The position numbers and the translations under genes were made by a program. From assembly GCF_024502345.1 (NCBI RefSeq), contig NZ_JALDNN010000001.1: DNA of 64,000 nucleotides. One strand, written 5' to 3'. A model generated the notes under the pieces. It was not told where the DNA came from and did no database searches. It worked only from the letters and a program-made list of their open reading frames with translations. Source of the DNA: Escherichia coli. Its GTDB lineage: Bacteria > Pseudomonadota > Gammaproteobacteria > Enterobacterales > Enterobacteriaceae. Below are positions 5,623-64,000 of the stretch, piece after piece (within the stretch, counting starts at the first letter, position 1; each line of letters starts with the position of its first letter).

Positions 5623-6612
5623 TTAGCCGCCAATGTACGATAAGTTTTGCGTAATACCGGTGTTGTTTTGATGCAGGAAATGGGTCTGTTTCTTCTCCCG
5701 CAGCGCCGCTGAAATACGCGCTTCCAGCGCCTGTTGCTGGGTATCGTCTTCCAGCAGATCGCGCAGGTTAACGCCGCCTTCACCAAACAGGCAGAGATGG
5801 AGTTTACCAATGGAGGAAACGCGCAGGCGGTTGCAAGTGGCGCAGAAGTCTTTTTCATACGGCATGATAAGGCCAATCTCTCCGGCGTAATCTGGATGGC
5901 AAAAGACTTGCGCGGGACCGTCGCTGCGTTGACGTAATTGGTGGATCCAGCCGCGACGCAGTAGCTCGTCACGCAGAACCTGACCAGAGATGTGATGCTT
6001 ACGGAAGAGCTCGCTGCCCTCGCCCGTTTCCATCAGTTCGATGAAACGCAGCTGGATAGGGCGATGCTGGATCCAGTTCAGAAAGGTGTCGAGCTGGTGA
6101 TGATTAACATCACGCATCAGCACGGTATTGACTTTGACCTTCTCAAAACCGGCCTCAAATGCAGCATCAATCCCCGCCATGACCTGGTTGAATTTATCCT
6201 GCCCGGTAATAGCGTGAAACTGGCGGGCGTCCAGACTGTCGACACTGACGTTAATGCCAGTAAGTCCCGCATCGCGCCAGTTCGCCACATCGCGTTCCAG
6301 ACGGTAACCATTGGTGGTGACCGCAATCTGGCGGATAGCGTCGTTTTCCCGCACAGCGGCGATGATATCGGTAAAGTCGCGGCGTAAAGACGGCTCACCG
6401 CCTGTCAGGCGCACTTTTTCGGTGCCCAGACTGGCGAAGGCGCGCGTAACCCGGCGAATTTCATCGACGGTAAGAAAGCCTTTATTGGTGACGCCGCTCG
6501 GTTTGTAGCCATCCGGCAGGCAGTAGGTGCAACGAAAGTTACACACATCGGTAATCGACAGGCGCAAGTAGTAAAACTTACGCGCAAATGCATCAGTCAG
6601 TTGTGAAGCCAT
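5623..6612 (-). CDS. moaA: GTP 3',8-cyclase MoaA (radical SAM)
   Basis: CNFRCTYC radical-SAM cysteine motif; start set at MASQLTDAF (329 aa) rather than upstream alternative start. Confidence 0.95.
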
Positions 6613-7917: not shown

Positions 7918-7974
7918 CGGAAATCCGAAGGAAAATTCCGGCTTCCTATTGAAGACAAAGTGCGCGTTGTTTAT

Positions 7975-8071
7975 GCCGGATGCGGCGTGAACGCCTTATC
8001 CGGCCTACAAACCGCGCAAATTCAATATATTGCGGAGAAAATGTAGGCCTGATAAGCGTAGCGCATCAGGC
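7975..8071. repeat. REP elements (pair) between ybhK and uvrB
   Basis: gccggatgcggcgtgaacgccttatccggcctac and gtaggcctgataagcgtagcgcatcaggc match the E. coli REP consensus family. Confidence 0.7.
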
Positions 8072-8108
8072 TGTTTTCCGTTTGTCATCAGTCTTCTTCG
8101 CTATCCTG

Positions 8109-47526: not shown

Positions 47527-48620
<1,094 letters not shown>

Positions 48621-48769
48621 TTTACATCCCGGTAATGCAACAAAAGTTAGAGCTTTTAAACGCTGCTACTATACGCGCGCGATTGAGGTTTGGGAATGAG
48701 GGCAAGTTAAGGGAGCGTAAAAATTTATGGGCCTGGAGCGGCCCATAATTTTTTAAAGAGAATTCTGAT

Positions 48770-49063
48770 TTAAAAGAAGAAGAAAATCAGCCCGACAATG
48801 AGAACAATATCGGCAAGCAATGGGCAAAAAATCCCTTGCCAAAGAACCTTCTGCGGACGAAAGCCCACGCCGTGAATCACACCAGCACAGACGGCCCACA
48901 TCAGCAATAAACCATGCCAGATTTCCAGTTCACTGGTCTTCGCGGCAAAACGAGATGGGTCCCAAAACATACATCCTGCTAACAGAAGCGCCATCACGAA
49001 GGAAAGCGCCCGCAGGGGGCGCTTGTCCATTACCGCATACAAAGTCGCGATAATCTTACTCAT
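48770..49063 (-). CDS. ybgE: cyd-operon membrane protein YbgE
   Basis: 97 aa hydrophobic ORF downstream of cydX. Confidence 0.88.
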   Translation of the reverse strand: MSKIIATLYAVMDKRPLRALSFVMALLLAGCMFWDPSRFAAKTSELEIWHGLLLMWAVCAGVIHGVGFRPQKVLWQGIFCPLLADIVLIVGLIFFFF

Positions 49064-49176
49064 CAGATGTCTTCTTGACCGGCTTTGCCTGATTCGACGT
49101 GTTCAAGCGCCAGCGCGGTGATTACCCCAAACGAACAGGCAAGAAGCGTTCCCAGAATCCATGCGAAATACCACAT
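49063..49176 (-). CDS. cydX: Cytochrome bd-I small subunit CydX (37 aa)
   Basis: Hand-translated (below ORF-track cutoff): MWYFAWILGTLLACSFGVITALALEHVESGKAGQEDI; stop overlaps ybgE start (TGATG). Confidence 0.9.
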   Translation of the reverse strand: MWYFAWILGTLLACSFGVITALALEHVESGKAGQEDI

Positions 49177-49190
49177 TTTTAGCTCCTTAC

Positions 49191-50330
49191 TTAGTACAGA
49201 GAGTGGGTGTTACGTTCAATATCTTCTTTGGTGATACGACCGAACATTTTCCAGTAACACCAGGCGGTGTAGAGCAGAATGATCGGTACCAGAACCACCG
49301 CAACCCAGGTCATGACGTTAAGCGTCAGCTGGCTGGAAGTTGCATCCCACATTGTCAGACTTGCGTTCATCATGGTGCTGGACGGCATCACAAACGGGAA
49401 CATTGCGATACCGGCTGTCAGGATGATGCAGGCCAGCGCCAGGGAGGAGAACACAAACGCCCACGCGGCTTTATCCATACGTGCAGTCAGGATGGTCAGC
49501 AGCGGCAGAACCACACCCAGTGCCGGAATAGCCCACAGAATTGGCGTGTTGTTGAAGTTAACCAGCCATGCGCCAGCTTCACGAACCACTTCTTTATTCA
49601 GTGGGTTAGAGGCTGCGTAATGGTCCATTGTCGATTTCACGACATAACCATCGATACCGTACATCACCCATACGCCAGCCAGTGCGAAACAGACCAGTGT
49701 CACCAGCGCAGCCACCTGAGCCGTTGCACGGGTACGCAGGTGCAGTTCGCCCACGGTACGCATTTGCAGATAGGTTGCGCCCTGAGTAATGATCATCCCT
49801 ACGCTCACCACGCCTGCCAGCAGGCCGAACGGGTTAAGCAACTGGAAGAAGTTACCGGTGTAGTACAGACGCAGATATTCATCAACGTTGAACGGTACGC
49901 CCTGCAACAGGTTACCGAACGCTACACCAATTACCAGCGGCGGAACGAAGCTACCAATGAAGATGCCCCAGTCCCACATGTTACGCCAGCGGGTTTCTTC
50001 AATCTTGGAGCGGTAGTCAAAACCGACCGGACGGAAGAACAAAGACGCCAGCACGAGGATCATCGCCACATAGAAGCCGGAGAACGCAGCGGCATAGACC
50101 ATCGGCCAGGCAGCAAAGAGTGCGCCGCCCGCGGTGATCAGCCAAACCTGGTTACCGTCCCAGTGTGGTGCAATGGAGTTAATCATAATTCGACGCTCGG
50201 TGTCGTTACGACCGAGGAAACGGGTGAGCATGCCCACCCCCATGTCGAAACCGTCAGTGACTGCAAAACCAATCAGCAGAACGCCAACCAGCAGCCACCA
50301 GATAAAACGCAATACTTCATAATCGATCAT
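49191..50330 (-). CDS. cydB: Cytochrome bd-I ubiquinol oxidase subunit II
   Basis: 379 aa polytopic membrane protein. Confidence 0.95.
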   Translation of the reverse strand: MIDYEVLRFIWWLLVGVLLIGFAVTDGFDMGVGMLTRFLGRNDTERRIMINSIAPHWDGNQVWLITAGGALFAAWPMVYAAAFSGFYVAMILVLASLFFRPVGFDYRSKIEETRWRNMWDWGIFIGSFVPPLVIGVAFGNLLQGVPFNVDEYLRLYYTGNFFQLLNPFGLLAGVVSVGMIITQGATYLQMRTVGELHLRTRATAQVAALVTLVCFALAGVWVMYGIDGYVVKSTMDHYAASNPLNKEVVREAGAWLVNFNNTPILWAIPALGVVLPLLTILTARMDKAAWAFVFSSLALACIILTAGIAMFPFVMPSSTMMNASLTMWDATSSQLTLNVMTWVAVVLVPIILLYTAWCYWKMFGRITKEDIERNTHSLY

Positions 50331-50345
50331 TTGACGACTCCTGTC

Positions 50346-51914
50346 TTAGCGTGCCGGCTGAGTAGTCGTGGAAGACTGCTCAAAGTGATAGCGACCGGTT
50401 TTCAGGCTGCTTGGGCCGAGGCGTGCAAACTTGAACATTAAGAACAATTCTGCCACCAGGAACAGGGTATACAGGCCGCAAATCAGCACCATTGAGAAGA
50501 TGAGATCGCCTGCGGTCAGTGACGAGTTCGCCACAGCTGTCGGCAGCACTTCACCGATAGCCCACGGTTGGCGGCCATATTCAGCCACGAACCAGCCCGC
50601 TTCTACAGCAATCCACGGCAGCGGAATACCGTACAGCGCGGCGCGCAGCAGCCATTTTTTCTCGCCAATGCGGTTGCGGATGACACTCCAGAAAGAGAGC
50701 GCGATGATTGCCAGCAGCAGGAAGCCACACGCCACCATGATACGGAACGCGAAGTACAGCGGCGCTACACGCGGAATGGAGTCTTTGGTTGCCTGTTGAA
50801 TCTGCGCTTCAGTCGCATCAGCCACGTTTGGCGTATAGCGTTTCAGCAGCAGACCGTAACCGAGGTCTTTCTTCATGCTATTGAACTGGTCACGAACTGC
50901 CTGGTCGGTAGAACCAGAACGCAGTTGCTCGAGCAGAGAGTACGCCTTCATCCCGTTACGAATGCGTTCTTCATGCTGCACCATCAGTTCTTTCAGGCCG
51001 ATAACTGGAGTATCCACGGAACGCGTTGCAATGATGCCCAGCGCGTAAGGGATCTGGATCGCAAATTTGTTCGTCTCCTCTTCCTGATCAGGAATGCCGA
51101 ACAGAGTAAAGGCAGCAGGCGCAGGTTGCGTTTCCCACTCGGCTTCAATAGCAGCCAGTTTGGTTTTCTGCACGTCGCCCATTTCGTAACCAGATTCATC
51201 ACCCAGAACAATAACAGACAGAACGGCAGCCATACCGAAGCTGGCAGCGATAGCAAAGGAGCGTTTAGCGAAGGCGAAGTCACGACCTTTCAGCATATAC
51301 CATGCGCTGATACCGAGGATGAACATCGCGCCAGTCACATAACCAGACGCTACAGTGTGAACGAATTTCACCTGAGCAACCGGGTTAAGCACCAGCTCGG
51401 AGAAGCTCACCATCTCCATACGCATAGTTTCAAAGTTGAAATCGGACGCGATTGGGTTTTGCATCCAGCCGTTCGCAACCAGAATCCACAGTGCGGACAG
51501 GTTTGAACCGAGCGCCACCAGCCAGGTGACACACATATGCTGAACTTTACCCAGACGATCCCAACCGAAGAAGAACAGACCTACAAAGGTGGATTCGAGG
51601 AAGAAGGCCATCAGACCTTCGATTGCCAGCGGCGCACCGAAGATATCCCCTACATAGTGGGAATAGTAAGACCAGTTAGTCCCGAACTGGAACTCCATGG
51701 TCAGACCGGTAGCCACACCCAGAGCGAAGTTGATACCAAACAACTTGCCCCAGAACTTGGTCATATCTTTATAAATCTGTTTGCCGGAAAGGACGTAGAC
51801 CGTTTCCATAATGGCCAGCAGGAACGCCATACCGAGCGTCAGTGGCACAAAAAGGAAGTGGTACATCGCGGTCAAGGCAAACTGTAAGCGCGACAGTTCG
51901 ACTATATCTAACAT
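50346..51914 (-). CDS. cydA: Cytochrome bd-I ubiquinol oxidase subunit I
   Basis: 522 aa from [15 protein letters not shown]. Confidence 0.95.
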
Positions 51915-52251
51915 CATGACTCCTTGCTCATCGCATGAAGACTCCGAGAGTGAACCCCGTTAGAAAGGGTCACACGCATGCCCCAATACAAAATTATTTG
52001 CTCGCCTCTATCGTTGCCATTTCATCAAAAGAGGAAAAGACAATGATAAAAAAGTTACAAATATGTTAATGAATAAACCAAATTGATCCCGTAATTATAT
52101 TACGCCGCAAAATCCTTACAATAAACAGGTTTTTATTGAGCAAATTTGCATTTTTCGACAGTGATCAATTTATAGCGAAATTGTCACGATCTCACCAATT
52201 TGATCTACGACAATTTATCGTGTTTTGCAGATTTTTTTCAAGAATTAAAAA

Positions 52252-52265
52252 TTGATTTATATCAA
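52252..52265. promoter_or_regulatory. FNR-type box in the cydA upstream region
   Basis: ttgatttatatcaa = TTGAT-N4-ATCAA about 340 bp upstream of cydA. Confidence 0.55.
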
Positions 52266-52719
52266 AACCAACCAAATATGTTAATTATGTATAAACCATA
52301 GATCATTGGTGATTTTATTGTTAATTTATTGTGAAATATTTATGCAACACAATTATTACAATGAAAAGGTATAGATAAAAAACCAGTGTTTTATTTAACA
52401 GAACCGCCCAATCAACTTTTTATAATACCAATTGATTAGAGTAGCCAATTTGTTGCTATTTTACATAACATATTTTTATCAAAGTTAATTGATTGTTGCC
52501 TTTATGAGCACCGACCGTAAGCCCGTTATGTTATTGTTTCATTAGTAATAATCACTTAAATGTATCGATGAAACAGGTATGACTTACCGGGAGTGATTGT
52601 TTCTGAGTGAACAGAGGCCACTTTCGCCTGATAAATGAAAAATGAGCGATTTTTGCAAGTTAGTTTTTCTATAGCCGAGTACGCTCAGCGCCTCGCTTGA
52701 TTACAATGAGGTTGCTGCT

Positions 52720-53664
52720 ATGAGTCCTGATAATATCGGTTCGGCTGTCAATCGCTTCTCAGGTTGGCCATCTAATGATCCTCTAAAAACAGATGAAGAA
52801 TCAATGAAATCACCCGTGACTGTGCAAGTAATAAAGATGATTGCCGCCATCCTTGACCCACATCGGATAGTCGTTGGAATTGATACACTTTATACAACGC
52901 AGCGCGAAACATTTACCTCAGAGAGTCAACAGCTCATTGAATCAGCATTGCAAACACTTCATGTGATGAATTTAAATAATCTGGAAACAAATCGCGATGA
53001 AGAAGGTCACTATCTGGCTTTTGAATATAACGTTGACACCTCTGACAGAATAACCGTTTCTGCTTATAATGAAAAAAAGCCTGGCTGCTATGGCCAATGT
53101 CTTTTAATACAGGATGACGAAACAGACTTATTTAACCTGATAAAAATTAAAATTTTCGAAGCCAGGCATAATTATGTCGCTCAATTGATGAGCGATCCGG
53201 AATTTATGTTCAAATTCAGTTATAGCGCTCAACAAAATAGATTAGAACCTCATCTTCTGGTTCCCGCTTATTTCCCTCTAAAAACAAACGAACCGGTTAC
53301 GCAAGAGGATGTACTGTTACTTTATCGTTTCTTTAAAATGAATGATGATTTTAATAAATTAACATCAGAGGAATACATGAGTATCATGACTCCTCTGATG
53401 AAGTGTGAGCGTAGCGTCCACGACAACAACAGGTATGTGACGGGCAAAGATACCCATCTTCTGGACTATCCTCCTTCTGGTAACCAGATACATTTCCATA
53501 TTTTTCCTGACGAATCAGCAACACTAGTCCTTTATTTTTCAAACAATGACCTTGAATGTTTCGTCTTTGAAAGAGATATTCCTAGCCAGTATCGCTTTTT
53601 CAAAATGTTTACCAATCTGGCACTGGTTATAGATCAGTTAACCGAAGCCAATAAAATACTTTAA
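52720..53664 (+). CDS. Hypothetical protein (314 aa), AT-rich accessory gene, no recognised domain
   Basis: Intact ORF with SD (gagg) 9 nt upstream; visibly AT-rich codon usage; no TM segment, signal peptide or P-loop; Ser/Asn/Pro-rich N-terminus. Confidence 0.6.
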   Translation: MSPDNIGSAVNRFSGWPSNDPLKTDEESMKSPVTVQVIKMIAAILDPHRIVVGIDTLYTTQRETFTSESQQLIESALQTLHVMNLNNLETNRDEEGHYLAFEYNVDTSDRITVSAYNEKKPGCYGQCLLIQDDETDLFNLIKIKIFEARHNYVAQLMSDPEFMFKFSYSAQQNRLEPHLLVPAYFPLKTNEPVTQEDVLLLYRFFKMNDDFNKLTSEEYMSIMTPLMKCERSVHDNNRYVTGKDTHLLDYPPSGNQIHFHIFPDESATLVLYFSNNDLECFVFERDIPSQYRFFKMFTNLALVIDQLTEANKIL

Positions 53665-53744
53665 TTTTCTATATATCCCTATGGCAAATATTGCTAAACA
53701 ATGCCTGGGGATTAATTTTTATTACTCACGGAAAGATTTAAATA

Positions 53745-54167
53745 ATGATACCATCTCAGATCTCTTTCAATACCCTTCCAGTCAATGCAACATACGCTTC
53801 AGAGACAACAGTTGACACACAAAAATTCTCTGACATCCTCTACTCAGCGGGGTGTTCCCTAAAGGATATGGCTTATCTGAGCAGATGTCTGGCATCAATA
53901 CACCCGACTCTCGCCAAAAACATTTATGAAACAGAAAATCTCAGCGATCAAAAATTACTGCATATTGATTGCCGTAGTACAAATGACATCAAGATAAATA
54001 TCTTTTTTGGTCAGCAACGAGAAGGATTAATTGAAATTAGTTCTGACACAGTTATTTTTTCGATACTGTCTTCATTGATTGACTCCGCCATTTCTAAATT
54101 TCAACATCAAAACCCCGTTAACGGTTCAGTTAATCCTGAACTATTGTATAAGGATTATACTGATTAA
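53745..54167 (+). CDS. Hypothetical protein (140 aa), AT-rich accessory gene, no recognised domain
   Basis: Intact ORF 80 bp downstream of the 314 aa ORF, same strand, SD-like ggaaag; Ser/Thr/Asn-rich N-terminus. Confidence 0.55.
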   Translation: MIPSQISFNTLPVNATYASETTVDTQKFSDILYSAGCSLKDMAYLSRCLASIHPTLAKNIYETENLSDQKLLHIDCRSTNDIKINIFFGQQREGLIEISSDTVIFSILSSLIDSAISKFQHQNPVNGSVNPELLYKDYTD

Positions 54168-54714
54168 ACCCACCCAGTCGCGAAAAATGGCCTGCGTTAT
54201 TGCCAGACGTAATAAAACCGTTGATTAACGTTACTCATACTGGTAGCACCTTCATGTACCTCTCTTTTTTACGAAAAATCAAAAGAGCTAACTAAGGTCA
54301 TAATTCGCATGAATCATTAACCATTTGTTATTTTCAACATTATTTTTACATTAAGCAGAAATGAATTGCAGTGAAATTCGACTTAAATCTTATGAAATGC
54401 ATTTACTCATGGCTAAAACCACGTCACAAAAATGCAAATTAGAAGTAGATCACAATTATCTCAATACATTAAATCAAGTTAATTTTAAAAATTTAACATT
54501 CATGTCATTAGTTGACATAACACACTGAATTAACATGGAAATTTAAAAACACACTTTAAACAATCATTTCCCGAAAGACATTTTGAAAATAGATCAATTG
54601 CAACATTACGGTCAGATAAAGACACTCCTGTGATATTAAACCTGTGCCGTTATGAACGGCCATAAATACGACGTGTGTAACTTATTTTACTCTCTGTCTT
54701 ACAAAGGATTACCC

Positions 54715-55164
54715 ATGAAGAAAGCAACACTTGTGATTGGCGTTATTGGCGCGGACTGCCATGCAGTAGGCAATAAAGTTCTGGACCGCGTTTTTAGCAA
54801 CCACGACTTCAGAGTCATTAATCTGGGCGTAATGGTCAGCCAGGACGAATATATTGATGCTGCCATCGAAACTGGCGCTGACGCGATTATCGTCTCCTCT
54901 ATCTATGGGCATGGCGATATCGACTGTCTGGGCATGCGCGAACGCTGCATCGAGCGTGGACTGGGTGACATCCTCCTCTATGTGGGCGGTAACCTGGTGG
55001 TCGGAAAACATGACTTCGCTGACGTGGAAACCAAGTTCAAAGAGATGGGATTTGATCGCGTCTTTGCCCCAAGTCATGACTTAGAAGATGTTTGTCAGCT
55101 GATGGCCCACGATATCAATCAACGTCATGACGTTGATACTCGTATTCTTGAAGAGGCTATCTGA
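54715..55164 (+). CDS. glmS: Glutamate mutase sigma subunit (B12-binding)
   Basis: Cobalamin-binding DxHxxG motif ([10 protein letters not shown]); close match to remembered Clostridium GlmS/MutS; start at MKKATLVIG. Not the GlcN-6-P synthase glmS. Confidence 0.88.
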
Positions 55165-56552
55165 TGCAAATCGTCTCTGTCGATATTGGATCGACGTGGA
55201 CCAAAGCTGCCCTCTTCACCCGGGAGGGGGACGCGTTAACGTTGGTTAACCACGTACTGACCCCAACCACCACCCATCATCTGGCGAAGGGGTTTTTCTC
55301 CAGCCTGAACCAGGTGTTAAACGTAGATAATGCCCTCCCCCTGTTAAACAGCGGTGAGGTTGCATTGAAGTATTCCTCCTCTGCCAAAGGTGGGCTGGCG
55401 GTTGCCGCAATGGGATTGGTGCCTTCTATCACCCTGGAAACCGCGAAAGTAACCGCTCACTCTGCGGGGGCTAAAATTGCGCAATATTACGCCTACAAGC
55501 TGAACCGCCGTGATATCCAGGCACTGGAAGAAACGCAGCCCGATATTCTCTTGTTCACCGGCGGCACCGACGGCGGAGAAGAAAGCTACGGACTGAATAA
55601 CGCCCGTGTGCTGGCAGAATCCAAACTCGACTGCGCCATTATTTATGCCGGAAACCGGGATATTCAGGACGAGGTGCAGGAGATCCTCGGGCATAAAGAC
55701 CTGACCATCGTCGACAATGTTCTGCCCGATCTTGACCATCCGAACCCTTTAGCCGCACGCCAGGCTATTTGCGACATATTCCTTAAACGCATCGTTAAAG
55801 GGAAAGGGCTGGATGTCATTGTTGATAAAACAGGCGAAGAACCAATGCCGACACCATGGACGGTCTTTGAACTGGTCAAGGCAATCAGTAACGTCGATCA
55901 CAGCTGGAAAGAGTTCATGCTGATCGACATGGGCGGCGCAACCACCGATGTTTATTCCGCCGGTGCCAACACGCTCTCGCCCGACACCGTTTTACACGGC
56001 GTACCGGAACCCTTCGTAAAACGGACGGTGGAAGGCGATCTGGGAATGCGCGTCTCGGCAGTGGTGGTTGGTGAAAGTGCGAAAGAGTTAGTCAATGTGA
56101 ATTTTGCTCAGCAACCCGCACAGCTGGACGCTTTTTATCATTACCTCCGTCATCTAGTCGCTCATCCCGACTACTTACCCGCAAATGCAGAAGAGAAATA
56201 TTTCGATACCGTCCTGGCCGGACTGTGTGTGGGTTATGCCACCGAAAGACATGCGGGCACCAAAAAAGAGGTCTGCACCTGCGTCGGCAATGTCGATTTA
56301 CAGATGGGACGTGACCTGACAACCGTGCGTAAAGTCGTCGGATCCGGCGGATGGCTCTCGCGTGCCAGTCAGTTCGATATGCATCACTGGTTGAAATACC
56401 GCGAGTTAAACGACGACGGTAAACGCATTCTCTTACCGACCGAATTTGAATATTACCGCGATTCCCGGGGGCTATTACCACTGCTGGCAAACGTCGCCAG
56501 AGTCGATCCGCTGGCCGCCGCGCGCACCAGTATTCAATGCTTAACCCTATAA
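55164..56552 (+). CDS. glmL: Glutamate mutase-associated protein GlmL/MutL (actin-like ATPase fold)
   Basis: 462 aa; N-terminal VDIGSTWTKAALF phosphate-1 motif; sits between S and E subunit genes; ATGA overlap with glmS. Confidence 0.8.
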   Translation: MQIVSVDIGSTWTKAALFTREGDALTLVNHVLTPTTTHHLAKGFFSSLNQVLNVDNALPLLNSGEVALKYSSSAKGGLAVAAMGLVPSITLETAKVTAHSAGAKIAQYYAYKLNRRDIQALEETQPDILLFTGGTDGGEESYGLNNARVLAESKLDCAIIYAGNRDIQDEVQEILGHKDLTIVDNVLPDLDHPNPLAARQAICDIFLKRIVKGKGLDVIVDKTGEEPMPTPWTVFELVKAISNVDHSWKEFMLIDMGGATTDVYSAGANTLSPDTVLHGVPEPFVKRTVEGDLGMRVSAVVVGESAKELVNVNFAQQPAQLDAFYHYLRHLVAHPDYLPANAEEKYFDTVLAGLCVGYATERHAGTKKEVCTCVGNVDLQMGRDLTTVRKVVGSGGWLSRASQFDMHHWLKYRELNDDGKRILLPTEFEYYRDSRGLLPLLANVARVDPLAAARTSIQCLTL

Positions 56553-56570
56553 CAATTAAGGCTGCAATCA

Positions 56571-58016
56571 ATGGAACTTCGAAATAAGAAATTAACCCAT
56601 GACGAATTCATGACCGAGCGGCAACAGGTACTGAAAACCTGGGAAACCGGCAAGGATGTTGAAAACTTTGAAGATGGCGTTAAATACCAACAAAACATTC
56701 CTGAGCATAAACGCTTCTCTCATGCCCTGCTGAAAGCAGACAAGGAAGGTAAAACCCTTAGCCAACCGCGCGCAGGTGTGGCGCTGATGGACGAACACAT
56801 CGAACTGCTGAAAACACTACAAGAAGAGTGCGATCTGCTGCCAAGCACCATCGATGCATATACCCGTCTGAATCGGTACGAAGAAGCGGCTGTAGGGATT
56901 AAAAAATCCATCGAAGCCGGAACCTCTAAACTGAACGGTTTACCGGTAGTTAACCATGGTGTCGCAGCTTGCCGTCGCCTCACCGAAACCCTGCAAAAAC
57001 CGCTACAGATCCGCCACGGCACGCCAGATGCGCGTCTGCTGGCTGAAATCTCAATGGCCAGCGGCTTTACCAGTTATGAAGGCGGTGGCATTTCCTACAA
57101 CATTCCGTATGCCAAACGTGTAACGCTGGAAAAATCGATCCGCGACTGGCAGTACTGCGACCGTTTAATGGGGATGTACGAAGAACACGGGATCCGCATC
57201 AACCGCGAACCGTTTGGCCCACTAACGGGTACGCTGATCCCGCCGTTTATCTCGCACTCTATCGCGATAATCGAAGGCTTGCTGGCGCTGGAACAGGGTG
57301 TGAAATCTATCACCGTTGGTTATGGCCAGGTCGGCAGCCTGACGCAGGATGTTGCGGCGATCCAGTCTCTGCGTGAACTTGCACACGAATACTTTCAGAG
57401 CTATGGCTATACCGACTATGAATTAAGTACCGTGTTTCACCAGTGGATGGGCGGCTTTCCGGAAGACGAATCGAAAGCGTTCGCTATTATCTCCTGGGGC
57501 GCAGCCGTCGCGGGGATGTCTGGTGCCACCAAACTCATCACCAAAAGTCCGCACGAAGCCTGGGGCATTCCGACTGCCGCTGCCAACATTCAGGGGCTGA
57601 AAGCCTCCCGCCAGATGCTCAACATGGTCAATGAGCAGAAATTCCCGCCGTGCCCTGCGGTTGAACTGGAAATTGAACTGATTAAGAGCGAGGTTCGCGC
57701 AGTACTGAATAAAGTGTTCGAACTGGGTAATGGTGATATTGCGCGCGGAACGGTGCTGGCATTTGAAGCGGGCGTACTGGATGTGCCGTTTGCGCCAGCC
57801 GCCTGCAACGCGGGCAAAATTCTTCCGGTCCGTGACAACACCGGCGCGATACGCGTACTGGAAGCCGGAGCCGTTCCATTGCCAAAAGATATTCTCGACC
57901 TCCACCACGATTACGTTGCGGAACGCGCACGCTGTGAAGGACGCCAACCGACATTCCAGATGGTTGTAGATGACATCAATGCTGTATCCCACAGTAAATT
58001 AATAGGAAGACCATAA
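56571..58016 (+). CDS. glmE: Glutamate mutase epsilon (catalytic) subunit
   Basis: 481 aa; extensive identity to remembered Clostridium GlmE (LPSTIDAYTR, HGTPD, VFHQWMGGFP, KTPHEA). Confidence 0.9.
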   Translation: MELRNKKLTHDEFMTERQQVLKTWETGKDVENFEDGVKYQQNIPEHKRFSHALLKADKEGKTLSQPRAGVALMDEHIELLKTLQEECDLLPSTIDAYTRLNRYEEAAVGIKKSIEAGTSKLNGLPVVNHGVAACRRLTETLQKPLQIRHGTPDARLLAEISMASGFTSYEGGGISYNIPYAKRVTLEKSIRDWQYCDRLMGMYEEHGIRINREPFGPLTGTLIPPFISHSIAIIEGLLALEQGVKSITVGYGQVGSLTQDVAAIQSLRELAHEYFQSYGYTDYELSTVFHQWMGGFPEDESKAFAIISWGAAVAGMSGATKLITKSPHEAWGIPTAAANIQGLKASRQMLNMVNEQKFPPCPAVELEIELIKSEVRAVLNKVFELGNGDIARGTVLAFEAGVLDVPFAPAACNAGKILPVRDNTGAIRVLEAGAVPLPKDILDLHHDYVAERARCEGRQPTFQMVVDDINAVSHSKLIGRP

Positions 58017-59257
58017 TGAAAATAAAACAGGCCCTGTTCACCGCTGGCTATTCCTCATTCTATTTCGATGACCAGCAGGCGATAAAAAACGGAGCGGGTC
58101 ATGACGGCTTTTTTTATACCGGGGAGCCGGTAACACAGGGGTTTAACGCCGTTCGTCAGGCCGGGGAGTGCGTATCGGTACAGTTGATTCTGGAAAACGG
58201 CGCGGTCGCCGTAGGTGACTGTACTGCCGTACAGTATTCCGGGGCAGGCGGTCGCGATCCACTGTTCCTCGCAGAGCACTTTATTCCGTTCCTCAACGAC
58301 CATATCAAGCCATTACTGGTAGGCCGCGATGTGGATGCTTTCCTGCCGAATGCCCGTTTCTTCGACAAATTGCGTATTGACGGCAACTTGCTGCATACCG
58401 CCGTGCGCTACGGATTATCACAGGCGCTGCTTGATGCTACCGCGCTGGCAACCGGCCGTCTGAAAACTGAAGTGGTCTGTGATGAATGGCAGTTGCCACG
58501 CGTGGCGGAATCCATTCCATTATTTGGTCAGAGCGGCGACGATCGATATATCGCCGTCGATAAGATGATCCTTAAAGGCATCGACGTGCTGCCCCATGCG
58601 CTGATTAATAACGTCGAAGAGAAGCTGGGCTTTAAAGGTGAAAAACTGCGCGAATATGTCCACTGGCTGTCGGATCGCATTCTGAGCAAGCGCACCAGCG
58701 CACGCTACCACCCAACCCTGCACATCGATGTATACGGCACTATCGGTCTGATCTTCGATATGGATCCGCTTCGCTGTGCGCAATACATCGCCAGCCTGGA
58801 AAAAGAAGCGCAAGGCCTGCCGCTCTACATCGAAGGGCCGGTCGATGCCGGTAACAAGCCCGATCAAATTCGCCTGCTGACCGCGATTACCAAAGAGCTG
58901 ACGCGCCTCGGTTCCGGCGTGAAAATTGTGGCCGATGAATGGTGTAACACCTACCAGGATATTGTTGATTTCACTGATGCTGCCAGTTGTCACATGGTGC
59001 AAATCAAAACCCCGGATCTGGGCAGTATTCACAACATCGTCGATGCGGTTCTTTACTGCAACAGCCACAGCATGGAAGCGTACCAGGGCGGCACCTGCAA
59101 TGAAACTGATGTCAGTGCCCGCACCTGTGTCCACGTCGCCCTTGCCGCTCGCCCTATGCGTATGCTGGTAAAACCAGGGATGGGCTTTGACGAAGGCCTC
59201 GATATCGTCTTCAACGAAATGAATCGTACTATCGCGCTGTTGCAGGCTAAGGATTAA
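58016..59257 (+). CDS. mal: 3-methylaspartate ammonia-lyase
   Basis: 413 aa; enolase-superfamily; strong identity to remembered Clostridium MAL (GAGHDGF, VQYSGAGGRDPLFLA, HMVQIKTPDLG); ATGA overlap with glmE. Confidence 0.92.
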   Translation: MKIKQALFTAGYSSFYFDDQQAIKNGAGHDGFFYTGEPVTQGFNAVRQAGECVSVQLILENGAVAVGDCTAVQYSGAGGRDPLFLAEHFIPFLNDHIKPLLVGRDVDAFLPNARFFDKLRIDGNLLHTAVRYGLSQALLDATALATGRLKTEVVCDEWQLPRVAESIPLFGQSGDDRYIAVDKMILKGIDVLPHALINNVEEKLGFKGEKLREYVHWLSDRILSKRTSARYHPTLHIDVYGTIGLIFDMDPLRCAQYIASLEKEAQGLPLYIEGPVDAGNKPDQIRLLTAITKELTRLGSGVKIVADEWCNTYQDIVDFTDAASCHMVQIKTPDLGSIHNIVDAVLYCNSHSMEAYQGGTCNETDVSARTCVHVALAARPMRMLVKPGMGFDEGLDIVFNEMNRTIALLQAKD

Positions 59258-59260
59258 CAA

Positions 59261-60631
59261 ATGGCTCGTTCTTTTAAAGTCTTATCGCCAACGGCAATCC
59301 TCGGGTATGGATTCCCGGAAGAGAGCTTCCGCAAAGCGATGGCAGAATCGCCCGATCTGATCGCCGTTGATGCAGGCTCTTCCGATCCAGGCCCCCACTA
59401 CCTCGGGGCAGGCAAACCGTTTACCGATCGCGCAGGGGTCAAGCGCGATCTGCGCTATATGATCACCGCAGGCGTGCAAAATAATATACCGGTGGTGATC
59501 GGAACGGCTGGCGGTTCTGGTGCCGCACCACACCTGGAGTGGTGCCGAGAAATAATTCATGAGATTGCCCGGGAAGAGCACCTCTCGTTCTCGATGGCGC
59601 TGATCCCGGCAGACGTTGACAAAGCCATCGTCCACCAGGCGCTGGATAACGGCAAAATCACGGCGCTGGAGTTTGTCCCGCCGTTAACCCACGACGCGAT
59701 TGACGAAAGTACGTATATCGTCGCGCAAATGGGCATCGAACCCTTCCAGCGTGCGCTAAAAGAAGGCGCGCAAGTGGTGCTGGGTGGGCGCGCTTACGAC
59801 CCGGCCTGCTTTGCTGCGCTACCGATCATGCAAGGCTTTGATGAAGGTCTGGCGCTGCATTGTGGGAAAATCCTTGAGTGCGCAGCAATCGCCGCAACGC
59901 CCGGCTCAGGCTCTGACTGTGCGATGGGCATCATTGATGACAACGGCTTTACGCTGAAGACATTTAATCCGAAGCGTAAATTTACCGAAACGTCAGCAGC
60001 TGCACACACACTGTATGAGAAATCCGATCCTTACTTCCTGCCAGGACCTGGCGGCGTGTTGAATCTGAAAGGCTGCACATTTAAAGCGGTCAATAACGGC
60101 GAAGTGTACGTCAGCGGTTCTAAGCATGAAGAAACGCCGTATGCCCTGAAACTGGAAGGTGCACGACGGGTGGGCTTCCGCTGTCTGACCATCGCCGGAA
60201 CGCGCGACCCGATTATGATCGCCGGGATCGATAAAATCATCGATGAAGTCAAAACCAGCGTTTCGCGTAACCTGTCGCTCGACGATGACAGCATTCGCAT
60301 CAATTTCCACCTGTACGGCAAAAACGGGGTGATGGGAGACCATGAACCGATGCAAACTGCCGGGCATGAGCTGGGGATTGTCCTTGATGTAGTTGCACCG
60401 ACCCAGGAAATTGCCAACAGCGTTTGCTCGCTGGTGCGCTCTACCATGCTGCACTACGGCTATGAAAACCGCATCGCTACCGCAGGCAATCTGGCGTTCC
60501 CGTTCTCCCCTTCTGATATCCAGGGCGGGCCGGTATACGAATTTTCCATATATCACCTGATTGAAGCCAACGACGCTCTGCGTTTTGATTTCCATATTGA
60601 ACAGGTGACGCCAGAAGGAGTTCAGGCATGA
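59261..60631 (+). CDS. DUF1446 (AtuA N-terminal domain-like) protein of unknown function
   Basis: 456 aa ORF 4 nt after mal; family assignment from memory, not searched. Confidence 0.7.
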   Translation: MARSFKVLSPTAILGYGFPEESFRKAMAESPDLIAVDAGSSDPGPHYLGAGKPFTDRAGVKRDLRYMITAGVQNNIPVVIGTAGGSGAAPHLEWCREIIHEIAREEHLSFSMALIPADVDKAIVHQALDNGKITALEFVPPLTHDAIDESTYIVAQMGIEPFQRALKEGAQVVLGGRAYDPACFAALPIMQGFDEGLALHCGKILECAAIAATPGSGSDCAMGIIDDNGFTLKTFNPKRKFTETSAAAHTLYEKSDPYFLPGPGGVLNLKGCTFKAVNNGEVYVSGSKHEETPYALKLEGARRVGFRCLTIAGTRDPIMIAGIDKIIDEVKTSVSRNLSLDDDSIRINFHLYGKNGVMGDHEPMQTAGHELGIVLDVVAPTQEIANSVCSLVRSTMLHYGYENRIATAGNLAFPFSPSDIQGGPVYEFSIYHLIEANDALRFDFHIEQVTPEGVQA

Positions 60632-60945
60632 AACAGTCAATTGTCTCACTGGCGCAAGTCATTCGTTCGAAAAATGCCGGACCTTACGAACTGGTTTTAG
60701 ATATTTTATTTAAAACGAAAGAAAACTATGAGCGAGTTAAATCATCAGGGCAATTAACCCCAGAACTGATTGCGCGCTTATATCATGTTGAACCTGACTT
60801 TATTCATCGTATTGTCTGGTTTGATCCTTCTAACGCAGTAAAAATCGTCATGCCACGAGATATTATCTCCGGGAATGTAGGTGACAATGATGTCTATGGT
60901 GCACAGCAACATGCACCTTTATTAAATATGAGTTTCGATTTGTAA
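60628..60945 (+). CDS. DUF4387 (AtuA C-terminal domain-like) small protein
   Basis: 105 aa ORF overlapping preceding ORF by 4 nt (ATGA); family assignment from memory. Confidence 0.65.
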   Translation: MKQSIVSLAQVIRSKNAGPYELVLDILFKTKENYERVKSSGQLTPELIARLYHVEPDFIHRIVWFDPSNAVKIVMPRDIISGNVGDNDVYGAQQHAPLLNMSFDL

Positions 60946-61028
60946 AAATCCGAATACTTTTAGCCAACTGACATCCCGTCACTTATTACAGTTCAACACT
61001 TCAGCTATTTGTAAGGTTGTAATAGCAG

Positions 61029-61060
61029 GTAGATGCCTGAATCTCTATTCAGGCATCTAC
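61029..61060 (+). terminator. Inverted repeat / possible attenuator between DUF4387 gene and transporter gene
   Basis: gtagatgcctgaatctctattcaggcatctac perfect 14 bp stem; no clean U-tract. Confidence 0.4.
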
Positions 61061-61084
61061 TTCTCCTGATTCTGATTTATCGCC

Positions 61085-61378
61085 GTGCACCTGATGGAGG
61101 AAAAAATGAAGAAAATAAGTTTAACCACGATGATTCTTTTGGCGCTGGTACTTGGAATGATTATCGGCGTAGTGCTCAATAACACTGTTTCACCGGAAAC
61201 AGCAAAACTCTATGCGCAAGAAATATCGATATTCACGACGATTTTCTTACGACTGATAAAAATGATTATCGCTCCGTTAGTGGTCTCTACCCTGGTGGTA
61301 GGTATTGCTAAAATGGGAGATGCCAAAGCCCTTGGTCGTATTTTTTCTAAAACACTCTTTTTATTTATTTGCGCCTCA
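61085..61378 (+). pseudogene. 5' fragment (98 codons) of a DAACS-family (GltP/DctA-like) dicarboxylate/amino acid:cation symporter gene, truncated by IS1
   Basis: [30 protein letters not shown] matches the GltP N-terminal signature; reading frame runs into IS1 and stops after 8 IS1-encoded codons. Confidence 0.85.
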
Positions 61379-61433
61379 GGTGATGCTGCCAACTTACTGA
61401 TTTAGTGTATGATGGTGTTTTTGAGGTGCTCCA

Positions 61434-61709
61434 GTGGCTTCTGTTTCTATCAGCTGTCCCTCCTGTTCAGCTACTGACGGGGTGGTGCGTAACGGCAAAA
61501 GCACCGCCGGACATCAGCGCTATCTCTGCTCTCACTGCCGTAAAACATGGCAACTGCAGTTCACTTACACCGCTTCTCAACCCGGTACGCACCAGAAAAT
61601 CATTGATATGGCCATGAATGGCGTTGGATGCCGGGCAACCGCCCGCATTATGGGCGTTGGCCTCAACACGATTTTCCGCCATTTAAAAAACTCAGGCCGC
61701 AGTCGGTAA
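61434..61709 (+). CDS. insA: IS1 protein InsA
   Basis: 91 aa; zinc-finger CPSC..CSHC; matches remembered InsA. Confidence 0.95.
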
Positions 61710-62131
61710 CCTCGCGCATACAGCCGGGCAGTGACGTCATCGTCTGCGCGGAAATGGACGAACAGTGGGGATACGTCGGGGCTAAATCGCGCCAGCGCTG
61801 GCTGTTTTACGCGTATGACAGGCTCCGGAAGACGGTTGTTGCGCACGTATTCGGTGAACGCACTATGGCGACGCTGGGGCGTCTTATGAGCCTGCTGTCA
61901 CCCTTTGACGTGGTGATATGGATGACGGATGGCTGGCCGCTGTATGAATCCCGCCTGAAGGGAAAGCTGCACGTAATCAGCAAGCGATATACGCAGCGAA
62001 TTGAGCGGCATAACCTGAATCTGAGGCAGCACCTGGCACGGCTGGGACGGAAGTCGCTGTCGTTCTCAAAATCGGTGGAGCTGCATGACAAAGTCATCGG
62101 GCATTATCTGAACATAAAACACTATCAATAA
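61628..62131 (+). CDS. insB: IS1 transposase InsB (expressed as InsAB' by -1 frameshift)
   Basis: 167 aa ORF in -1 frame relative to insA. Confidence 0.93.
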
Positions 62132-62146
62132 GTTGGAGTCATTACC

Positions 62147-62555
62147 AATCGCCGTTATTAGCTAAAGAATGAATATTAACAATAATATCGGGATGTAACT
62201 TTGTGAATTCATGTAAATTTGGGATTAACCAGTGGGTACTAAAAGTAGGATTAACGGCAAGTTCAATAACCTGAACCGTAGGCTGCCAGGTCATAATGGT
62301 ATTGGTATCGCGTTCCAGCTTATTTAATGTTTCTTTTACTATCCCCAGGTAATACTTCCCTGCATCATTAAGAAAAATGCGTTTTTTAGAGTGTGAAAAT
62401 AACGGAGTACGTAAAAATTCCTCCAGCGCACTTACTTGTCTGAATACTGCACTTTGGGTTAACGCTAACTCCTCTGCCGCTCTGGTATAACTTTCATGAC
62501 GTGCGACGACCTCAAAAGTCACCAGCAGTTCCGTTTTAGGTATTTTCCCTCGCAT
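62147..62555 (-). pseudogene. LysR-family regulator, 3'-truncated by IS1 (only about 135 N-terminal codons remain)
   Basis: LysR HTH (TFEVVARHESYTRAAEELALTQSAVFRQVSALE); last codon and stop are supplied by the IS1 end. Confidence 0.85.
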
Positions 62556-63118
62556 AATGCCGTCCCTTAAAAATAGTTTAAACCATCAAAAATACATTAC
62601 TTATTACGAAGTAATGGTAACAAAGCAGCAATAAATAATTTATAAGAATCATGATTGACATTTATAAACCAGTAAGGCTGGCGTGACAAATATCTTAATC
62701 AGATAATAATAATCCGAAAAGCACAGCGCCTTTCGAATTATCCGGAATCACATTAAGTGAAAATTATTAAATTGATATCATTTATCATATCTGTGGATAT
62801 TATGATAAACAATCAACAAAGATTTTATTTTTGATTTATAGCATATCCATCTAAGAATTTTTGCGATGCTGCAATATCCGGGGTAAAGACCCGATCCTGG
62901 CTGACAAATGGCACGACTTGACGAAAAGCGGTGAACATCGCTTTTGTTGATTTACTTAACGCTACGGTCAAACGCTGGGAAGCCAGTGCATCAGGTAACG
63001 ATTCGAAATTCGCCGTCGTTCTTATTCGTGGCTTGCGGTCGGTCGCGGCAATCCACAGTGGCTGTGGTCATGCAGTCAAGCCTGCAGTCAGATTTCGACC
63101 GTGGTTAACCGTTTAAGG

Positions 63119-63220
63119 TATAAAAAAGGCCATCATACGATGGCCAACCATGTCGAAACCGACAGCCCTTCGCCATTCCTGTAGAGGGAAGCGGCGAGGG
63201 CTATTTCTTATTACAGATAT
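63119..63220 (-). ncRNA. sdhX: sucD 3'UTR with terminator; expected location of 3'UTR-derived sRNA SdhX
   Basis: Immediately after sucD stop; ends in hairpin ggccatcgtatgatggcc + T6; SdhX is reported to derive from the sdh-suc operon 3' end. Confidence 0.55.
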
Positions 63221-64000
63221 TTATTTCAGAACAGTTTTCAGTGCTTCACCGATATCCGCCAGGCTGCGAACGGTTTTCACGCCTGCGGCTTCCAGAGCAG
63301 CGAATTTCTCATCCGCAGTCCCTTTCCCACCGGCAATGATGGCACCCGCGTGGCCCATACGTTTGCCTTTCGGCGCAGTCACACCAGCGATGTAACCCAC
63401 AACTGGCTTGGTAACGTGCTCTTTGATGTACGCAGCTGCTTCTTCTTCAGCGCTACCGCCGATCTCACCGATCATCACGATCGCTTCGGTCTGCGGATCT
63501 TTTTCGAACATTTCGAGAATGTCGATAAAGTTAGAGCCAGGGATCGGGTCACCGCCGATACCGACACAGGTCGACTGACCGAAACCGTAATCCGTGGTCT
63601 GTTTAACCGCTTCATAGGTCAGTGTACCGGAACGGGAAACGATACCCACTTTACCCGGTTTGTGAATGTGACCCGGCTGGATACCGATTTTGCATTCACC
63701 CGGAGTGATAACGCCCGGGCAGTTCGGGCCGATCATACGAACGCCGGCTTCGTCCAGTTTCACTTTCACAGTCAGCATATCCAGCGTCGGGATGCCTTCA
63801 GTGATGGTGATAATCAGTTTGATGCCTGCATCAATAGCTTCCAGAATGGAGTCTTTGCAGAACGGTGCTGGTACGTAGATAACAGAAGCGGTAGCGCCAG
63901 TAGCAGCAACAGCTTCACGCACGGTGTTGAACACCGGCAGGCCGAGGTGGGTAGTACCGCCTTTACCTGGGGTTACGCCGCCAACCATTTTAGTGCCGTA
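63221..64000 (-). CDS. sucD: Succinyl-CoA synthetase alpha subunit, 5'-partial (start beyond window end)
   Basis: Frame open to window edge; matches remembered SucD through C-terminal ..ALKTVLK. Confidence 0.95.

Follow-up and report, generated by a model that had tools for sequence, protein, structure and literature searches.

The 805 bp between cydA and the next gene in this stretch of Escherichia coli DNA (64 kb, referred to as the window) very probably consist of the transcriptional control region of cydAB, which encodes cytochrome bd-I, together with 163 bp that belong to a neighboring orphan-gene module, and the control allele carried by the window would be the ancestral Escherichia form. 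E. coli depends on cytochrome bd-I for low-oxygen growth and gut colonization, and the cydAB control region is a standard model of combined regulation by ArcA, FNR and H-NS. The spacer appears ordinary apart from the difference between an apparently ancestral Escherichia allele here and a strongly diverged replacement in K-12.

Location and Composition of the Spacer

The spacer extends from 51915 to 52719 and separates cydA on the minus strand from a hypothetical gene on the plus strand. Gene starts were taken from the RefSeq-style annotation of a 99.7%-identical genome, that of strain F9792. The cydA gene is 97.6–100% identical to its K-12 counterpart. The GC content of the spacer is 33.3%, and that of 51989–52556 only 27.6–29.0%, compared with 50.7% for the whole window. 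No ORF of at least 60 aa is found in the spacer, and ORFs of 44–50 aa only touch its edges. The candidate of a structured RNA element was rejected, since an Rfam scan of 51700–52900 at E ≤ 1 matched no family and the RNA of the proximal leader folds like shuffled sequences (z = 0.25). A tRNA scan of 48000–64000 returned none.

A reading made from the sequence alone had described an AT-rich, ORF-free region of about 800 bp between cydA and an island, and the size and composition agree with the 805 bp and 33% GC seen here. The same reading took the region to be the multi-promoter control region of cydAB, and this is supported by FNR and ArcA sites in positions that match those of K-12. The features of the region are as follows:

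50346–51914, minus strand: cydA coding sequence (cytochrome bd-I subunit I), start codon at 51914–51912, from the ORF list and the F9792 annotation
51915–51988, minus strand: proximal cydA leader of 74 nt with Shine-Dalgarno sequence, from the alignments, the identity table and the invariant blocks
51989–52339, minus strand: core control region, alignable to K-12 and strongly diverged
52052–52069, plus strand: ArcA box AAGTTACAAATATGTTAA, 20.2 bits, 146.5 bp upstream of the ATG, counterpart of K-12 cydA3
52094–52121, minus strand: sigma-70 promoter-like TTGTAA-16-TATAAT, 10 of 12 matches, from the promoter scan
52200–52213, no strand assigned: second, half-consensus FNR-type site TTGATCTACGACAA, from sequence, alignment and the invariant block 52196–52205
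52212–52241, minus strand: P1-like promoter TTGAAA-18-TAAATT, from the promoter scan
52252–52265, no strand assigned: perfect FNR palindrome TTGATTTATATCAA, counterpart of Fnr site 1 of cydA P1 at −53.5
52278–52335, plus strand: three ArcA boxes of 16.2, 14.7 and 20.6 bits, 372–413 bp upstream, counterpart of K-12 cydA2
52340–52556, minus strand: distal control segment, Escherichia-type allele, without pairwise similarity to K-12
52465–52499: distal ArcA pair, TTGATAAAAATATGTTAT on the minus strand (17.3 bits) and AAGTTAATTGATTGTTGC on the plus strand (14.0 bits)
52557–52719, plus strand: DNA specific to the hyp314 module, 163 bp, presumed leader and promoter, GC 42%
52720–53664, plus strand: hyp314 (314 aa)
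53745–54167, plus strand: hyp140

Leader, Promoters and FNR Sites

The 74-nt leader is identical to that of K-12 and near-invariant across the compared Escherichia and Citrobacter, with a single substitution each in E. albertii and three Citrobacter. The core control region upstream of it is 85–100% identical to other Escherichia. Secondary sources describe the K-12 spacer as bound by H-NS and as having five promoters, with P1–P4 controlled by oxygen, ArcA and Fnr. Two promoter-like elements could be identified in the window allele. The TTGTAA-16-TATAAT element has a predicted start ≈173 nt upstream of the ATG. Its position within the region's most conserved block, where 52096–52105 and 52109–52134 are invariant, makes it probable that this is one of P2–P4, the downstream promoters of cydAB. 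For the P1-like element the predicted start is close to position 52205, or 291 nt upstream of the ATG.

The FNR palindrome TTGATTTATATCAA is the sole match to TTGAT-N4-ATCAA in the 64 kb, where 0.07 matches would be expected; 7 of 100 shuffled sequences gave one. In a three-way alignment, TTGATAAATATCAA of K-12 occupies the same columns as TTGATTTATATCAA, and perfect FNR half-sites are present 342–347 bp from the ATG in all 16 sequences from Escherichia, Citrobacter and Pseudocitrobacter. K-12 has an FNR ChIP-seq peak at 770,404, and its cydAB FNR site is listed at −53.5 (Myers et al., 2013; PMC3688515). The center of the palindrome in the window, 52258.5, falls at exactly −53.5 if the predicted start at 52205 holds. 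The perfect FNR-type palindrome noticed in the earlier reading is thus confirmed, being unique in the 64 kb and aligned with the known K-12 site, and its sequence and alignment mark TTGATTTATATCAA as the established FNR site of cydA P1.

P1 reportedly has two Fnr sites, and we take TTGATCTACGACAA at 52200–52213 to be the second. It is centered at −1.5 from the predicted P1 start, and the CAATTTGATC within it is invariant across genera.

ArcA Boxes

ArcA boxes were scored with a position weight matrix (PWM) made from 112 boxes in Table S3 of Park et al. (2013; PMC3798270), the three cydA boxes being excluded. Seven boxes of at least 14 bits were found in the spacer against 0.11 expected, and none of 200 shuffled sequences had as many. 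They are located 146.5, 372.5, 401.5, 412.5, 438.5, 559.5 and 576.5 bp upstream of the ATG. Three ArcA ChIP-seq regions have been mapped at K-12 cydA, namely cydA1 (770081–770111, the strongest), cydA2 (770260–770311) and cydA3 (770526–770556) (Park et al., 2013; PMC3798270). The corresponding K-12 sites lie 581.5, 378–410 and 143.5 bp upstream, respectively.

The proximal box scores 20.2 bits here and 14.8 bits in K-12. The middle boxes of K-12 also score lower than those of the window (12.8, 10.4 and 12.3 bits), with 20.6 bits here set against 12.3 bits there. The distal pair, 559.5 and 576.5 bp upstream, is the counterpart of cydA1 by position only, as the sequences there are unalignable. 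Proximal and middle boxes are kept in all 16 sequences from the three genera, and GTTAATTGATTGTT in the distal pair is invariant in the seven Escherichia-type sequences (7/7). The FNR and ArcA sites are thus present and enriched in the spacer, and their positions are conserved across genera. Because the ArcA-box clusters are found at equivalent distances in both alleles, the regulatory logic has probably been kept between them.

Proposed Regulatory Mechanism

A mechanism may be proposed from the K-12 system and the conservation of the sites. The site functions given here for the window allele are putative ones carried over from K-12 by alignment or PWM, and the occupancy and effect of its FNR and ArcA sites would follow the same analogy. 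H-NS would bind the AT-rich control DNA and silence it. Under microaerobic conditions, phosphorylated ArcA would occupy three clusters of direct-repeat boxes ≈146, 372–413 and 560–577 bp upstream, and this occupancy would relieve the repression by H-NS and activate P1 from its predicted start near 52205. In K-12, ArcA is thought to activate cydAB by antagonizing H-NS. At full anaerobiosis, FNR bound to the palindrome at −53.5 and to the weaker site over the start (52200–52213) would repress P1, and the remaining transcription would come from downstream promoters such as the one at 52094–52121.

Homology Boundaries and Haplotypes

The homology of the spacer ends at three nested boundaries rather than at one: 51988, ≈52339 and 52556/52557. 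The first, 74 bp upstream of cydA, is where near-identity to K-12 ends. Identity between the window and K-12 is 100% up to 51988, 59.6% for 51989–52082, 87.9% for the promoter block 52083–52180 and 65.4% for 52181–52339, after which it is 37%. The second is the point at which sensitive blastn loses K-12 (52339, corresponding to L001:5637). Alignment of 52340–52556 to K-12 L001:5638–5876 gave z = −0.57 globally and z = −0.35 locally, compared with z = 42 for the B2 control. Direct homology of the two distal segments was therefore not demonstrable, the alignment to K-12 being at the level of shuffled sequences. Orthology of 52340–52556 with the K-12 distal segment is argued from position, from the ArcA boxes and from the partial similarity of each segment to Citrobacter. 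The strongest ArcA site of K-12, cydA1, sits in K-12-specific DNA.

At the third boundary, homology to 1107 B2-type E. coli genomes ends at 52555, and homology to four other Escherichia species ends at about the same point (52555–52570). The position 52556/52557 is the true junction with the hyp314/hyp140 module, 163 bp before hyp314. The segment 52340–52556 is common to B2 E. coli, E. albertii, E. whittamii, Escherichia sp. E1V33 and MOD1-EC7003, with 79–95% identity. Past the junction, the B2 haplotype (for example in APEC O1, ST131 and FDAARGOS_1260) continues with a TPR pseudogene and then sucD.

The sequence-only reading had placed the boundary of an island in the distal part of the spacer. 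A junction does exist there, at 52556/52557, but the DNA up to 52556 is not island. It had also looked to alignment with K-12 to locate the exact breakpoint, a fully collinear 800 bp counting against it. No single breakpoint emerged, since identity already falls at 51989, and the spacer is not collinear throughout, since nothing aligns beyond ≈52339.

A census of 5426 complete E. coli genomes gave the following distribution:

Full spacer as in the window: 1138 genomes
B2-type, common only to 52555: 1107 genomes
K-12-type distal segment: 3178 genomes (59%)

No genome carries both the window-type (2245 genomes) and the K-12-type (3178 genomes) distal segment, and 5423 of the 5426 have one or the other. 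The K-12-type segment is at least 95% identical in 3176 of its 3178 genomes, while the window type has ≈81% identity between its two subtypes.

Origin of the K-12 Allele

A genome scan with the pattern TTTATTGTAAGGA-N10-TAATATA (window 52096–52125), for which an exact match was required, found 31 loci in a sample without E. fergusonii, Salmonella and other genera, and 29 of the 31 were cydA loci. The window-type distal segment is found, up to ≈52556, in E. albertii, E. whittamii, E1V33, MOD1-EC7003 and E. coli E69 (82–95% by blastn). Among the outgroup loci, matches to the K-12 distal segment are confined to Citrobacter (C. amalonaticus, C. sedlakii and sp. NCU1), where they are collinear with 70–74% identity. 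The distal ArcA boxes point the same way: those of K-12 are at 581.5(−)/626.5(+), four of seven Citrobacter have a similar arrangement at 581–585(−)/625–629(+), and the Escherichia layout of 559.5(−)/576.5(+) is unlike that of K-12. In no segment is K-12 nearer to Escherichia than to Citrobacter. The window allele appears to be the ancestral Escherichia form and the K-12 type the outlier.

The K-12 control region might be a xenologous replacement that arrived in one event, in an ancestor of the K-12-type E. coli, and brought a Citrobacter-like architecture, in which case the alleles would differ in the oxygen response of cydAB; we put this forward as a tentative reading. The K-12 type most likely arose by a recombination event whose breakpoints fall in the 3′ part of mngB and within or close to the cydA leader. 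Such recombination would remove the ≈14-kb cluster, with everything that lay between mngB and cydA, and replace ≈570 bp of control DNA, and the replacement tract in K-12 would measure ≈770 bp, starting at the 3′ end of mngB and stopping 74 bp short of cydA. The K-12-type allele abuts mngB directly. The flanking cyd and tol genes are 97.6–100% identical between K-12 and the window, and mngR-mngA-mngB are 95–100% identical between K-12 and an island-type strain, with the exception of the 3′ end of mngB, where identity is 86% and further on 79.6%.

We also considered whether the 3′ end of K-12 mngB is clearly nearer to Citrobacter, and this was not decisive (68% against 62–65% for the island-type copy). 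A simple insertion model predicts that the K-12 distal DNA should lie beside mngB in an island-type genome, and there it is absent; only the K-12 REP cluster has matches, elsewhere in the window at 7922–8094. Identity between K-12 and the sampled Citrobacter is 44–49% in the distal and 59–69% in the proximal part, and no donor was identified among them. A narrow, targeted literature search found no paper describing the allelic structure at cydA.

Because no close donor of the K-12 allele was found, the apparent import could instead be an old polymorphism, with both alleles ancient in Escherichia, or with the K-12 type ancestral and kept in some E. coli. K-12 shares its distal ArcA layout and the adjacency of mngB with C. 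sedlakii, C. amalonaticus S646 and Pseudocitrobacter, and this arrangement could be ancestral. We nevertheless consider such a polymorphism unlikely. All four sampled non-coli Escherichia species as well as the B2 E. coli carry the window type. The K-12 type is near-uniform in E. coli while the window type is deeply split, and the flanking genes are near-identical right up to the tract, as for a bounded replacement.

The hyp314/hyp140 Module and the Glutamate-Fermentation Cluster

Between the cydA control DNA and glmS lies a low-GC (37%) orphan module of two genes, hyp314 and hyp140. Neither had a match in Pfam, NCBIfam or PADLOC, and a search for homologs found them in close Escherichia relatives only. 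The genes are intact in E. coli and degraded in MOD1-EC7003 and E. albertii. E. whittamii and E1V33 lack them, and relative to these two the window has extra DNA from ≈52556 to 54309 and 54016, respectively. The 163 bp at 52557–52719 are present only together with hyp314, that is, in E. coli of the window type, MOD1-EC7003 and E. albertii. A search for repeats flanking the module gave one 24-nt inverted repeat with 79% complementarity, which was judged to be due to chance because its right arm lies in DNA common to module-free species.

The gene order of the interval is sucD-mngR-mngA-mngB, followed by RtcB, LysR, cobO, fumD, a symporter, DUF4387 and AtuA, then methylaspartate ammonia-lyase, glmE, glmL, glmS, hyp140 and hyp314, and finally cydA. 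No integrase is found among the annotated genes between mngB and cydA. In E. whittamii, E1V33 and ≈15 Citrobacter-type loci, the genes glmS-glmL-glmE are divergent from cydA at a distance of 1.2–1.35 kb; in MOD1-EC7003 the distance is larger, the degraded hyp314/hyp140 lying in between. The GC content of the glm cluster is 52% and core-like, that of hyp314/hyp140 (37%) foreign-looking. The methylaspartate cluster is present in 21% of the complete E. coli genomes and absent from 79%. Its synteny with cydA across genera, its core-like GC content and the lack of tRNA, integrase and flanking repeats suggest that the glutamate-fermentation cluster is probably an old syntenic neighbor of cydA that was lost in many lineages, and not a recent insertion.

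The divergent arrangement of cydA and glmS is conserved across Escherichia and Citrobacter, the distal ArcA pair is 221–255 bp from the start of hyp314, and FumD and glutamate mutase are oxygen-sensitive or anaerobic enzymes. The spacer could accordingly be pictured as a shared bidirectional control region, in which the FNR and distal ArcA sites also govern hyp314/hyp140 and the glutamate-fermentation operon. We regard this as improbable. No consensus sigma-70-like promoter for hyp314 was found on the plus strand of 52440–52719, i.e., within 280 bp of the gene, and the FNR site is at least 455 bp from hyp314 and ≈2.4 kb from glmS. The control module is, moreover, unchanged where its neighbor is mngB, the TPR pseudogene or sucD. 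No methylaspartate ammonia-lyase activity was detected in the cultivated O157:H7 strain of Kronen and Berg (PMC4682846).

A K-12-like control region cut by a recent accessory island at a single distal junction, with distal ArcA DNA perhaps lost or perturbed, is very improbable: it would fit with DNA past ≈52339 that is unrelated to K-12, with the position of cydA1, the strongest ArcA ChIP-seq site of K-12, in the K-12-specific part and with the absence of the cluster from 79% of E. coli genomes, but 52340–52556 is also found in cluster-less B2 E. coli and E. albertii and, with any neighbor, in three further Escherichia species, it has a conserved ArcA pair at an equivalent distance, the divergence from K-12 begins at 51989 and not distally, the glm cluster has 52% GC and adjoins cydA in Citrobacter and E. 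whittamii, and there is no tRNA, no flanking repeat and no integrase among the annotated genes of the interval.

The sequence-only reading had placed an island of accessory genes beside cydA and suggested that these genes may share or perturb cydA regulatory DNA. Recent insertion of the methylaspartate cluster is not shown, as glmS-glmL-glmE adjoin cydA in other Escherichia and in Citrobacter, and it is the separate hyp314/hyp140 module that abuts the control region.

Significance and Comparison with Known Systems

Approximately 41% of the complete E. coli genomes (including O157:H7/O55:H7-type and B2/ExPEC strains) carry a non-K-12 control allele. The window allele differs from K-12 by 12–40% in the alignable part and wholly in the distal part. 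Because the allele is so diverged, the validity of K-12 site maps and promoter fusions should not be taken for granted in strains with a non-K-12 allele. Since the FNR and ArcA sites keep their positions, the same qualitative logic is nevertheless predicted. If the K-12 region is indeed a xenologous replacement, the respiratory regulation of K-12 would not be directly transferable to O157:H7 and ExPEC. The glutamate-fermentation cluster can be reread as a neighbor that many E. coli have lost rather than as a pathogen-specific insertion.

Control of cydAB in K-12 is said to involve promoters P1–P5, two Fnr sites and H-NS. The K-12 region is an 847-bp spacer between mngB and cydA with three ArcA-P regions. 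The window shares with it the same downstream gene, an identical 74-nt leader and a very low GC content. In both, a perfect FNR palindrome is equally far from cydA and another FNR-like site overlaps the start of P1; both have a P1-like promoter element, further promoter elements downstream of it, and ArcA clusters ≈145, 375–410 and 560–580 bp upstream. Unlike K-12, the window has only ≈60–88% identity to the K-12 sequence over 51989–52339 and a distal 217 bp that cannot be aligned to it, and its distal ArcA pair is at 559.5(−)/576.5(+) instead of 581.5(−)/626.5(+). It also lacks the REP cluster and the mngB terminator at this place, and its far neighbor is a divergent orphan gene, where K-12 has the convergent end of mngB.

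A glutamate-fermentation (methylaspartate/mesaconate) cluster with FumD has been described in O157:H7 and found in 26.5% of E. coli (Kronen and Berg, 2015; PMC4682846). The same cluster starts ≈2 kb to the right of the spacer and runs from glmS, glmL, glmE and methylaspartate ammonia-lyase to fumD. Kronen and Berg (PMC4682846) say nothing on cydA or on the junction. What is new here in relation to their work is that cydA is the conserved divergent neighbor of the cluster in other Escherichia and in Citrobacter, and that hyp314/hyp140 lie between the two in E. coli.

The region resembles a classical genomic island in its sharp loss of homology and in the low GC content of the adjacent two-gene module. 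It differs from one in having no tRNA, integrase or flanking repeats, and in that the large cluster combines a core-like GC content with synteny across genera. The interval between sucD and cydA is variable, and its variation has the appearance of differential loss or replacement.

Conserved Blocks in the cydAB Control Region

The 74 nt directly upstream of the cydA start codon (window 51915–51988, with cydA on the minus strand) are nearly invariant among the Escherichia and Citrobacter sequences compared, with one substitution in E. albertii and one in each of three Citrobacter. The CydA protein, in contrast, differs by 4–8% in Citrobacter. Immediately 5' of this leader the identity is down to about 60%. 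The RNA structure predicted for the leader does not rise above that of shuffled sequences, and a search of Rfam gave zero matches to it. Control of translation and a role as a small RNA target are both possibilities for the constraint on the leader.

Conserved blocks were also seen inside the otherwise variable distal segment of the spacer (52340–52556), at 52370–52382 and 52437–52511. One such block, TATAGATAAAAAA, is invariant in all seven Escherichia-type sequences and partly kept in C. amalonaticus. ArcA and FNR motifs do not account for the blocks at these two positions, which could be sites for another factor.

The K-12 Spacer and the 3' End of mngB

The mngB-cydA spacer of K-12 contains a cluster of REP-like repeats (5877–6052 of the K-12 locus, L001), whereas the spacer in the window has no such cluster. 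The K-12 cluster matches the window at 7922–8094 on the minus strand (77% identity). Between K-12 and an island-type strain, which carries the glutamate-fermentation cluster between mngB and cydA, the identity of mngB falls steadily toward its 3' end, from 95% to 90% and then 80% (L004:7228–8226 compared with L005), and the remainder of mngRAB has 95–100% identity. The proposed K-12-type replacement of control DNA, with one end in or near the cydA leader, may have its other end here, at the 3' end of mngB.

The hyp314/hyp140 Module

Window 52720–54167 is a low-GC orphan module of two plus-strand genes, hyp314 (52720–53664) and hyp140 (53745–54167), for which Pfam, NCBIfam and PADLOC give no family. 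Homologs are confined to Escherichia (64–97% identity). The module is whole in E. coli that share the full haplotype of the window. Only fragments of it are left in E. albertii and Escherichia sp. MOD1-EC7003, and E. whittamii and E1V33 lack it. Contig DXKH01000067.1 (L018) of a Citrobacter MAG has 98–100% identity to the E. coli window, hyp314 included. The same MAG holds a second cydA contig (L017) with a genuine Citrobacter cydA, and L018 probably got into the bin as contaminating E. coli DNA.

The sucD-cydA Interval in Other Genomes

Among the loci found in the genome scan by their conserved promoter block (L006–L036), several Escherichia species and about 15 loci of Citrobacter type have the glutamate mutase genes glmS-glmL-glmE divergently beside cydA (e.g., L035 of E. 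whittamii, L030, L008, L010, L019, and L024). The interval between sucD and cydA varies in content: it can be empty, or hold the glm cluster, mngRAB, hyp314 or a TPR pseudogene. C. amalonaticus AUH (L025) has remnants of both the mngB C-terminus and mngR between cydA and glmS, at the equivalent of window 52604–52994. The order of genes here is not that of E. coli, which suggests that rearrangements of the sucD-cydA interval occurred independently.
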